Assembly (NCBI GenBank): GCA_937903155.1 | Contig: CALCZU010000029.1 | Span: 4,861 to 68,860, forward strand | Source of the DNA: an uncultured Bdellovibrionales bacterium | GTDB taxonomy: Bacteria > Bdellovibrionota > FAC87 > UBA2466 | Direction: 5' to 3' | Length of the DNA stretch: 64,000 nt | Part shown: positions 3,083-4,294 of the stretch, one piece after another | Layout: every line of letters begins with the position of its first letter | Numbering within the stretch: position 1 is the stretch's first letter | The notes under the pieces: generated by a model | What the model saw: only the letters and a program-made list of their open reading frames with translations | Databases searched by the model: none | What the model was told of the DNA's origin: nothing | Program-made: the position numbers and the translations under genes

Positions 3083-4294
3083 ATGCGTTTATTCGTCGTC
3101 ATCGTTCTCTTAGTTTTACAAAGCCTGGCCTTCTCTGCAAATTGGGAAGGCGTGGGACAAGTCTCGTGTGGCACGCTCATCGCTTCATGGGTAAGGAAGG
3201 GCCCCACTCCCGATGAATTGGTTCGAAGGGGAATTGTTTTTGACAGCCCTCGGGATAATCAAGATTTTACTTACTTAGGAAGAGGAACCTACTCCCAAGT
3301 TTGGCGTGGATTTGCAGCAAATAACAAAGGTGGAAGAATTCCTGTCATCATCAAAATGACAAAACCTAAAAAAGCGGAGTATTTAGATCGAGCGCTGATT
3401 TACATTGAGCGAGAACATACTCTTTTAAGTCGAATCTCCCCCGAAACAACGCATCTGATCAAATCCGGAGACACGAAGTATCTCGTGACAGAAGTGATTC
3501 CCAGAGACCCTCAGCATCCGACGGAGCCGGCTTACACACTTTTCGAAATCCTGGAATCGCCGCAGTTATTTTCTGAAGATCTTGCTCACCTCGATTCGGG
3601 GAAAAGTTTGAATGCGCGGTATGCGGTTGCACGGTCTATTGTGGCCGCTATGCAGGCGCTCCACGAAAAGCGCATCATCCATGGAGATGTGCAGGCAAAA
3701 AATATTCTCCTCGCTCAGAGGCAGGATGGAAGTCCTTTCGCGCATTTTATCGATTACGGGTTTTCTTCAGGGCCGAGTGTTCCTCCCTTGTCCGGAACCT
3801 ACGGAAGTCGACTCGCTTTGAAAAATCCCAAAGGAGAAGCTTTTCTAGCGAAAGAGACAACCCCACTCCGCGACTGGCAGGCGATGCGACTCGTTCTTTT
3901 AGAAGTTTTTTCAGAAAAGAAAATGACGGTTTCGAATCCAGAAACGGCTTCGCGTCTTTCAGAAATGGAATTTTTACTCAAAAGCAGTCTGCCTTTAGAC
4001 AGTTCAAATTACGCAAAGTGGTTGACCCCGATTAAGTCGAGAAAGCAATTTTTAGAACAATTCGCACAGGAATGGACAAGCACTTTTAAAACCACAACCG
4101 ACGTCGATTTAAAGATAGATCTGATATCTGATTTGGTTCTTCTTAATCCCGCTTTTGGCTCTGAAGTATTAGAACACCTGCCTCACGAATTTCAAAAAGT
4201 CGTCATTGAAGACGCCGTACTCGGCGAATTTAAATCATTTTTGAAACTCCCCAAAGTAAGAGAAATTCGAGAAAAAATAGGCGATCCGAAGTAG
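3083..4294 (+). CDS. Secreted protein-kinase-like (eukaryotic-type Ser/Thr kinase fold) protein
   Basis: Signal peptide MRLFVVIVLLVLQSLAFSA. Kinase motifs are present: Gly-rich loop GRGTYSQVWRG, beta3 lysine in VIIKMTK, catalytic loop HGDVQAKNILL, a DYG (DFG-like) motif, and the downstream RDWQAMRLVLLE. Confidence 0.65.
   Translation: MRLFVVIVLLVLQSLAFSANWEGVGQVSCGTLIASWVRKGPTPDELVRRGIVFDSPRDNQDFTYLGRGTYSQVWRGFAANNKGGRIPVIIKMTKPKKAEYLDRALIYIEREHTLLSRISPETTHLIKSGDTKYLVTEVIPRDPQHPTEPAYTLFEILESPQLFSEDLAHLDSGKSLNARYAVARSIVAAMQALHEKRIIHGDVQAKNILLAQRQDGSPFAHFIDYGFSSGPSVPPLSGTYGSRLALKNPKGEAFLAKETTPLRDWQAMRLVLLEVFSEKKMTVSNPETASRLSEMEFLLKSSLPLDSSNYAKWLTPIKSRKQFLEQFAQEWTSTFKTTTDVDLKIDLISDLVLLNPAFGSEVLEHLPHEFQKVVIEDAVLGEFKSFLKLPKVREIREKIGDPK

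Follow-up and report, generated by a model that had tools for sequence, protein, structure and literature searches.

A candidate Sec-exported Hanks-type kinase, member of a small protein family, in an uncultured Bdellovibrionales bacterium

The catalytic domains of bacterial Hanks-type protein kinases are almost always cytoplasmic, and the bacterial kinases known to act in another cell are injected by type III or type IV secretion systems (T3SS and T4SS): a family of kinases headed by a Sec signal fits neither pattern. This is the question raised by an open reading frame (ORF) located at 3083..4294 (+) in the stretch of DNA analyzed here, 64,000 nucleotides of contig CALCZU010000029.1 from an uncultured Bdellovibrionales bacterium (hereafter the window): is its product a protein kinase, and does it work outside the cell that makes it? 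The ORF is complete (ATG start, 403 amino acids plus stop) and is overlapped only by short ORFs; it comprises, in this order, a segment resembling a signal peptide, an N-terminal extension, a Hanks-type kinase domain and a C-terminal helical module. The product is a Hanks-type protein kinase with a bilobal fold. The explanation that we put forward as the best one, with a confidence that stays below even, is that this protein would be a Sec-exported, catalytically competent, PknB-like kinase of the Ser/Thr type, which would act outside the producer in an effector role. If the protein is indeed exported and active, it would reveal either a new delivery logic for effector kinases in Bdellovibrionota-like bacteria or phosphorylation in an extracytoplasmic compartment; if its N-terminus is merely an anchor, we are dealing with an ordinary orphan signalling kinase.

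The kinase assignment was established by profile searches. The Pfam Pkinase profile (PF00069) matches residues 64-230 of the query with E=5e-11 and 42.9 bits (gathering cut-off 31.7), which corresponds to profile positions 6-147 of 263; in the relatives described below, the match reaches profile position 198 or so. The PK_Tyr_Ser-Thr profile scores 41.1 bits against a cut-off of 23.1, and these two families are the only ones in Pfam to exceed their thresholds with the query. Weak matches to CaMK, MARK and JAK2 around the catalytic loop were obtained with phmmer against the PDB sequences (E about 3e-4). Pfam, the structure model, Foldseek and the family profile place the kinase domain at about residues 61-320 (3263..4042; this and all other elements of the protein are encoded on the + strand).

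The elements expected of a phosphotransferase are found in order along this domain. The glycine-rich loop, Y64-L-G-R-G-T-Y-S-Q-V-W74 (3272..3304), contains the stretch G66-R-G68-T-Y-S71-Q-V73 and is followed by the beta3 catalytic lysine K91 in the sequence V88-I-I-K91 (3353..3355) and by its alphaC partner, the glutamate E111 (3413-3415). The C-lobe provides the catalytic loop H200-G-D202-V-Q-A-K206-N207 (3680..3703), the activation segment running from D224-Y-G226 to P249-K-G-E252 (3752..3838) and the alphaF aspartate D264 (3872-3874). In an alignment of 55 sequences that includes bacterial kinases, K91, E111, H200, D202, N207, D224 and D264 all occupy invariant kinase columns. Two elements depart from the consensus. 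The catalytic loop, compared to HRDxKxxN, has a glycine (Gly201) in place of the arginine, hence a non-RD kinase, and a glutamine (Gln204) in place of the lysine at D+2, the only lysine of the loop being K206, at D+4, beside Asn207. The APE motif is degenerate (P249-K-G-E252), with P249 and E252 aligning to the PE columns at the cost of a two-residue insertion. The preliminary description of this DNA, made from the letters alone, had listed a glycine-rich loop, a VAIK-like lysine, an HxD...KxxN catalytic loop and a DYG motif: the glycine-rich loop, the VIIK lysine, HxD, the asparagine and DYG are all there, whereas the literal HxD...KxxN string is not, owing to the displacement of the lysine to D+4. 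This complement of residues suggests that the kinase is catalytically competent. As to its specificity, G238-T239 retains the P+1 signature of the Ser/Thr type, which, along with a PknB-like ancestry (see below), points to serine and threonine as the likely acceptors.

The catalytic loop of the query has a curious counterpart. The JH2 pseudokinase domain of JAK2, whose loop reads HGNVCAKNILL, resembles the HGDVQAKNILL of the query, but the latter retains the catalytic aspartate (HGD versus HGN). With the single sequence, the best PDB matches include JAK2 JH2 chains (E about 7e-4, residues 179-228). The likeness is local and is not seen in the relatives P0002, P0003 and P0067; it is probably convergent.

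The same preliminary description had proposed a kinase fold, and structure prediction bears this out. An AlphaFold model computed from the single sequence was uninformative (predicted local distance difference test score, pLDDT, of 42) and was replaced by an AlphaFold2 model based on a 55-sequence multiple sequence alignment. The latter consists of a beta-rich N-lobe and a helical C-lobe, with a predicted template modelling score (pTM) of 0.67 and a pLDDT of 85-94 over most of residues 60-240 and 261-280. Searched with Foldseek against the PDB, it retrieved more than 1,500 kinase chains, headed by IRAK4, FGFR, RET, EphA2 and JAK2-JH2; the best matches have a probability of 1.0, an E-value of about 1e-10, about 300 aligned columns and a target-normalised TM score of about 0.66. 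Model and structure search thus agree on a bilobal kinase rather than any other fold. Against a viral library, Foldseek returned only generic kinases.

We then asked how widely this protein is distributed. An exhaustive phmmer search of 1.84 billion representative proteins (50% identity level) yielded 120 matches at E<=1e-3, only two of which rise above the level of generic kinases: P0002 (448 amino acids, 4e-12) and P0003 (472 amino acids, 6e-11). Two more relatives were found among the kinase matches by other means, P0067 (584 amino acids) by screening N-termini for hydrophobic segments and P0083 (465 amino acids) with a hidden Markov model of the C-terminal region. The N-terminal screen flagged 10 of 198 kinase matches, i.e. 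three family members, P0067 and six others, and only one of these six, P0074, looks like a signal-peptide-bearing protein; P0083 escaped the filter. The family therefore amounts to the query and four relatives among the 1.84 billion representatives, with pairwise identities of 22-34% and contigs whose GC content spans 44-63%. When 5.8 billion proteins were searched through a word index, the query alone retrieved nothing but itself, and a three-sequence profile added to P0001 and P0002 nothing more than multi-domain kinases of the generic kind. No relative was found in the GTDB genome contigs, and no homologue in the IMG/VR viral contigs or in the phage and plasmid collections. In the JGI metagenome contigs, 34 loci match over the catalytic core only (profile positions about 57-275), none of them with the signal peptide or the C-terminal module.

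In spite of this divergence, none of the five members deviates at K91, E111, D202, N207, D224 or D264. Their catalytic loops read HRDLKPNN, HRDIKPEN, HGDVQAKN (the query), HLDLTPKN (P0083) and YNDGKPQN: P0002 and P0003 have canonical motifs (HRDLKPxN-type loop and GTPxY), three members keep the lysine at D+2, and P0083 shares the lysine shift of the query. The best matches of the family profile are the bacterial kinases StkP, PknB, PknE and PknA (E-values from 1e-17 to 1e-12), which argues for an ancestry among bacterial Hanks-type kinases rather than a recent import from eukaryotes.

The feature that sets the family apart is its N-terminus. In the query, residues 1-19 (MRLFVVIVLLVLQSLAFSA, followed by NW up to residue 21; 3083..3139) are organized like a Sec type-I signal peptide, as judged from signal-peptide rules and from conservation in the family. 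A two-residue n-region (M1-R2) precedes an h-region of 10-13 residues (L3-L15), and no further hydrophobic segment occurs in the protein. Small residues occupy positions -3 and -1 of two possible sites: the likelier cut falls after A16 (S14-L-A16, then F), leaving MRLFVVIVLLVLQSLA on one side and a mature protein starting with FSA on the other, and the alternative one falls after S18 (A16-F-S18, then A). L15 and A16 are invariant in a three-sequence alignment. The same anatomy recurs throughout the family: in all five members, the h-region is 10-13 residues long and ends with SLA, ALA, GLA, GVA or ATA (alanine at -1; serine, alanine or glycine at -3), arginine and lysine are found solely on its N-terminal side, and its C-terminal flank is neutral or acidic. 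In P0067, this reading involves a shorter protein than the one called: a Shine-Dalgarno sequence, GGGGGAG, precedes Met12, the methionine of the signal peptide, so that the protein probably begins 11 codons downstream of its called start. Within the window, the S41/PDZ protease of the C-terminal-processing type, which served as a control, begins with a similar pattern (MKKFVFSCVVSLAFISVAKA, then DS), and no such segment was found in the helicase, methyltransferase, Fic and LysR proteins. Other types of signal were considered and rejected, namely a lipoprotein signal, since there is no lipobox and no cysteine at the end of the h-region (C29 comes 10-13 residues later), and a Tat signal, since the query has no twin-arginine motif.

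These observations suggest that the pre-protein is targeted to the Sec machinery and cleaved by signal peptidase I near A16, and the N-terminal pattern of the family speaks, as far as sequences can tell, against a mere N-terminal anchor with the kinase left in the cytoplasm. The preliminary description had spoken of a cleavable signal peptide: the type-I anatomy and its conservation in all five members speak for the signal peptide, and cleavage itself is predicted from rules and comparison. In the papers that we searched, no secreted Bdellovibrio kinase, no periplasmic Hanks kinase and no Hanks kinase bearing a Sec signal in Bdellovibrio-like bacteria turned up.

Beyond the signal and the catalytic core, the family has three parts of its own. 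The pre-kinase extension (residues 20-60, 3140..3262), modelled at low confidence, contains the motif P43-x-E-L-x-R-x-G50-I, which reduces to P43..L46...G50 in the family. It also carries C29 (3167-3169), the sole cysteine of the query, which is invariant in the five members and lies 7-25 residues past the predicted cleavage site; the mature family proteins contain one or two cysteines each, of which this one is invariant. This residue might form a disulfide between molecules or mediate dimerisation in an oxidising compartment. The second part is an insertion in the hinge, between beta5 and alphaD (residues 139-152, PRDPQHPTEPAYTL, 3497..3538), modelled as a beta-hairpin with a pLDDT of about 90; its family pattern is (P)xDxxxPxxPAPTL, with P149 and L153 invariant. 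The third is the C-terminal helical module (residues 323-385, 4049..4237), a new unit of about 60 amino acids defined by the family, in which F323, L347, G359 and L366 are invariant and for which Pfam gives no match even at E<=1. This unit occurs in each of the five members and is duplicated in P0067, which indicates an independent module, most likely a docking or targeting unit that would direct the kinase to a target or a location.

How does this architecture compare with that of known kinases? The family shares with PknB, StkP, PknA and PknE, its best profile matches, the catalytic core and the P+1 loop of the Ser/Thr type, GT(P)xY. By contrast, PknB-type kinases have their catalytic domain at the N-terminus, in the cytoplasm, and continue with a transmembrane helix and a sensor outside the cell, whereas the family starts with a signal peptide, has no sensor and adds the hinge insertion, the cysteine-bearing extension and the new C-terminal module, the query being in addition non-RD with its lysine at D+4. 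In concept, the family is closer to the bacterial Hanks-like kinases that are meant for another cell: LegK1-4/7 of Legionella, YpkA/YopO of Yersinia, SteC of Salmonella, XopAU of Xanthomonas and OspG/NleH. These are delivered by T3SS or T4SS and have no Sec signal. No membership in the corresponding NCBIfam families was detected: LegK1 (NF043056) gives 14.6 bits with the query and 38.2 with P0002 against a cut-off of 550, XopAU (NF041408) gives 24.7 bits with P0002 against 450, and all curated kinase families of NCBIfam (LegK1, XopAU, PknB-PASTA, MAD6 and others) stay far under their cut-offs. A kinase fold behind a cleavable signal peptide, working beyond the cytosol of the producer, is found in ROP18 and ROP16 of Toxoplasma and in Fam20C and VLK. 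These rhoptry and secretory-pathway kinases are however eukaryotic, they travel through the endoplasmic reticulum and Golgi or through rhoptries, and no specific sequence relationship with the family was detected, so that the analogy is one of logic only.

The mechanism that we propose on these grounds is the following. The signal peptide would bring the pre-protein to SecYEG. Cleavage by signal peptidase I after the conserved x-L-A, at about A16, would then release a soluble protein of about 385 amino acids made of the extension with its invariant cysteine, the kinase core and the C-terminal helical module. The core would hold the complete catalytic set (K91, E111, D202, N207 and D224) and, because the kinase is non-RD (HGD), it would probably need no phosphorylation of the activation loop. 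The C-terminal module would dock the enzyme on its target or location. Finally, the enzyme would leave the periplasm and work in a compartment that contains ATP, most plausibly the cytoplasm of a prey or host cell. This last step stems from the fact that a protein predicted to be exported has kept its phosphotransfer residues and from the presumed absence of ATP in the diderm periplasm, which together imply that the enzyme would meet ATP outside its own periplasm. A survey of serine/threonine kinases in Planctomycetota placed every Pkinase domain in the cytoplasm for this very reason, i.e. because the periplasm lacks ATP (PMC11032199).

An effector role in a prey or host cell, already put forward in the preliminary description, is thus plausible, and we hold it tentatively. 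Many predatory proteins of Bdellovibrionota-like bacteria are secreted in a Sec-dependent manner. A stronger version, in which the family would be the first recognised one of Sec-dependent effector kinases, with a constitutively active non-RD kinase entering the prey or host and a C-terminal module targeting it to its substrate, appears doubtful to us; were it true, it would mean phosphorylation from predator to prey, or from symbiont to host, with neither T3SS nor T4SS. Several points weigh against the proposed mechanism as a whole. No secretion-system genes lie beside the kinase gene and no conserved partner or synteny emerges from the five loci, so that a route across the outer membrane is not indicated. 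That the source organism is a predator is a presumption. The signal peptide was called from rules and family conservation, and the h-region and c-region together make up 17-19 mostly apolar residues, which leaves room for an uncleaved anchor. The activity may be weak or altered, since the query has no lysine at D+2 and a degenerate APE motif and since the glycine-rich loop of P0083 is degenerate as well. Lastly, model confidence is low in the extension (residues 20-60) and the C-terminal module (pLDDT 38-66), and over the last 80 residues in general.

Two alternatives concern the place where the kinase works. The protein could be exported and yet stay in the envelope of its own cell or in the external milieu, where it would use leaked or extracellular ATP or another donor, or serve as a periplasmic scaffold that binds a nucleotide or another ligand. 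All the evidence for export applies equally to this explanation, which also accommodates the lack of secretion-system context and of a conserved partner gene, and a single invariant cysteine suits an oxidising compartment. What makes it unlikely in our view is that the periplasm is regarded as free of ATP (PMC11032199) and that the full phosphotransfer set is strictly kept at about 25% identity, which would be hard to understand for a mere binder. The other alternative places the kinase domain in the cytoplasm, as in nearly all bacterial Hanks kinases, by means of an uncleaved N-terminal anchor, the protein being then an ordinary membrane-tethered signalling Ser/Thr kinase. The hydrophobicity of the M1-A19 segment (19-residue Kyte-Doolittle mean of 2.2) and the rule-based nature of the signal-peptide call leave this door ajar. 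In three members, however, only one or two residues precede the segment, and the positive charges found on its N-terminal side in all five predict an N-in/C-out orientation; moreover, the hydrophobic cores, with their 10-13 residues, are too short for a transmembrane helix and are each followed by a small-x-Ala site, and the protein has neither a sensor domain nor a second transmembrane segment. We consider an anchored cytoplasmic kinase quite improbable.

The remaining two alternatives concern what the enzyme does. HGDVQAKN fits the Brenner-type motif, HxDxxxxN, of APH-like kinases, and sub-threshold scores were recorded for the Kdo kinase family (18.8 bits versus a cut-off of 21.3) and, in P0002 and P0003, for APH (PF01636; about 20 bits versus 23.2), so that a phosphotransferase acting on a small molecule, akin to APH, choline kinase or Kdo kinase, had to be envisaged in place of a protein kinase. 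Yet the two protein kinase families are the only ones above threshold, the query gives no APH match at E<=0.1, P0002 and P0003 display the canonical HRDLKPxN and GTPxY motifs, and the family profile fits PknB and StkP best; a small-molecule kinase is thus very unlikely. A cytoplasmic anti-phage defence kinase, of the kind of PD-T4-6, Mad6 of the MADS system or Mokosh, is suggested by PADLOC matches to the kinase core (mad6, 42 bits; MkoA, 35.5; PD-T4-6, 34), but these scores are no better than that of the generic Pkinase profile and stem from the catalytic core alone, and the MAD6 model of NCBIfam gives 22 bits against 460. Sensing infection in the cytoplasm is incompatible with having a signal peptide, no defence genes lie next to the kinase gene, and neither phage nor plasmid collections contain a homologue. 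We regard a defence function as scarcely credible.

At the genomic level, the kinase gene stands between a divergent gene (1273-2985, -) and a convergent one (4366-4800, -), and a terminator-like hairpin followed by a T-run, recognized by consensus match only, lies directly 3' of the stop codon (4296..4320, +). Given this arrangement, the gene is probably monocistronic. A consensus scan revealed no promoter upstream of it, and no Shine-Dalgarno sequence was found there, which is uninformative given that only about 40% of the genes of the window show one. Met1 is taken as the real start: even very distant relatives retain the hydrophobic segment at their N-terminus, and two in-frame downstream starts, GTG24 and TTG46, which would delete it, were rejected. 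The composition of the gene (GC 0.453, GC3 0.433, codon distance 0.136) is typical for the window and native to the host, without any sign of recent transfer, and horizontal acquisition was accordingly discarded. The identical protein is recorded from two contigs, a 5.7-kb metagenome contig of ENA and a 73-kb contig. The window contains no paralogue of the kinase, and no kinase was found near the orthologues of the S41 protease in related metagenome-assembled genomes (MAGs). This protease is 43% identical to one from a Pseudobdellovibrionaceae MAG, and the best named matches of the XPD/DinG-like helicase of the window come from MAGs of Oligoflexia, Bdellovibrionales and Bdellovibrionota (62-64% identity). 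These two results place the host among the diderms of the Bdellovibrionota lineage. The window also encodes, at 10134-10970 (-), a helix-turn-helix and DUF4423 protein of the TIGR02147 family (112 bits versus a cut-off of 50), a paralogous family known from Fibrobacter and Bdellovibrio, which fits a Bdellovibrionota affiliation.

The immediate surroundings of the kinase gene (within 1-10 kb) are made up mostly of signal-peptide-bearing ORFans and leucine-rich repeat (LRR) proteins, plus a hemerythrin. The ORFans around the kinase gene in the region 1-10200, which match no Pfam or NCBIfam family, give it the appearance of a small 'secretome island': they are found at 1273-2985 (-; 570 amino acids), 4894-5592 (+; 232 amino acids) and 8843-10144 (-; 433 amino acids). 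The last one gives 17.5 bits with a retron Eco8 effector model whose cut-off is 250, almost certainly by chance. Counted with these ORFans is the product of the convergent gene at 4366-4800 (-), a Cys-rich protein of about 100 amino acids, whose likely start is an internal methionine (MKNLARLVSLVLFTLVLSTS...). At 6425-8395 (-), a 656-amino acid protein combines a TIGR02996 'repeat-companion' domain (50 bits versus 29) with RNI-type LRR_6 repeats and is partially similar to the STM4015 family; it is adjoined by a 119-amino acid ORF consisting of LRRs only (8467-8826, +). Among eukaryote-like LRR proteins, roles in interaction or as effectors are frequent.

The loci of the relatives provide a point of comparison. 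Those of P0002, P0003 and P0067 show no synteny and no partner gene shared with the window or with one another, and the contig of P0083 carries that gene alone. Proteins with a signal peptide abound in the P0003 and P0067 loci too. At the P0067 locus (L042, positions 1-21755 of a 43-kb contig, GC 0.63), nearly all neighbours have a signal-peptide-like start, and they include a DUF1207 protein, two DUF3015 proteins, an Lnb_N lipoprotein and an S8 peptidase.

Further along the window, a few other genes deserve mention. The ORF at 23434-25983 (-) encodes a full-length fatty-acid cis/trans isomerase (CTI, Pfam E=3e-177); its GTG-start product is absent from the protein collection, and the true start is probably further downstream. 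The protein encoded at 28633-29739 (-) combines DUF4172 with a Fic/DOC domain and is a candidate AMPylase or toxin-like enzyme. Lastly, a long block of genes on the same strand (31152-42153, -), related to the modification of the envelope or of polysaccharides, contains an MBOAT protein, a GDSL lipase, a 658-amino acid fusion of a CofD-like domain with GT2, an adjacent GT2 paralogue and a methyltransferase.

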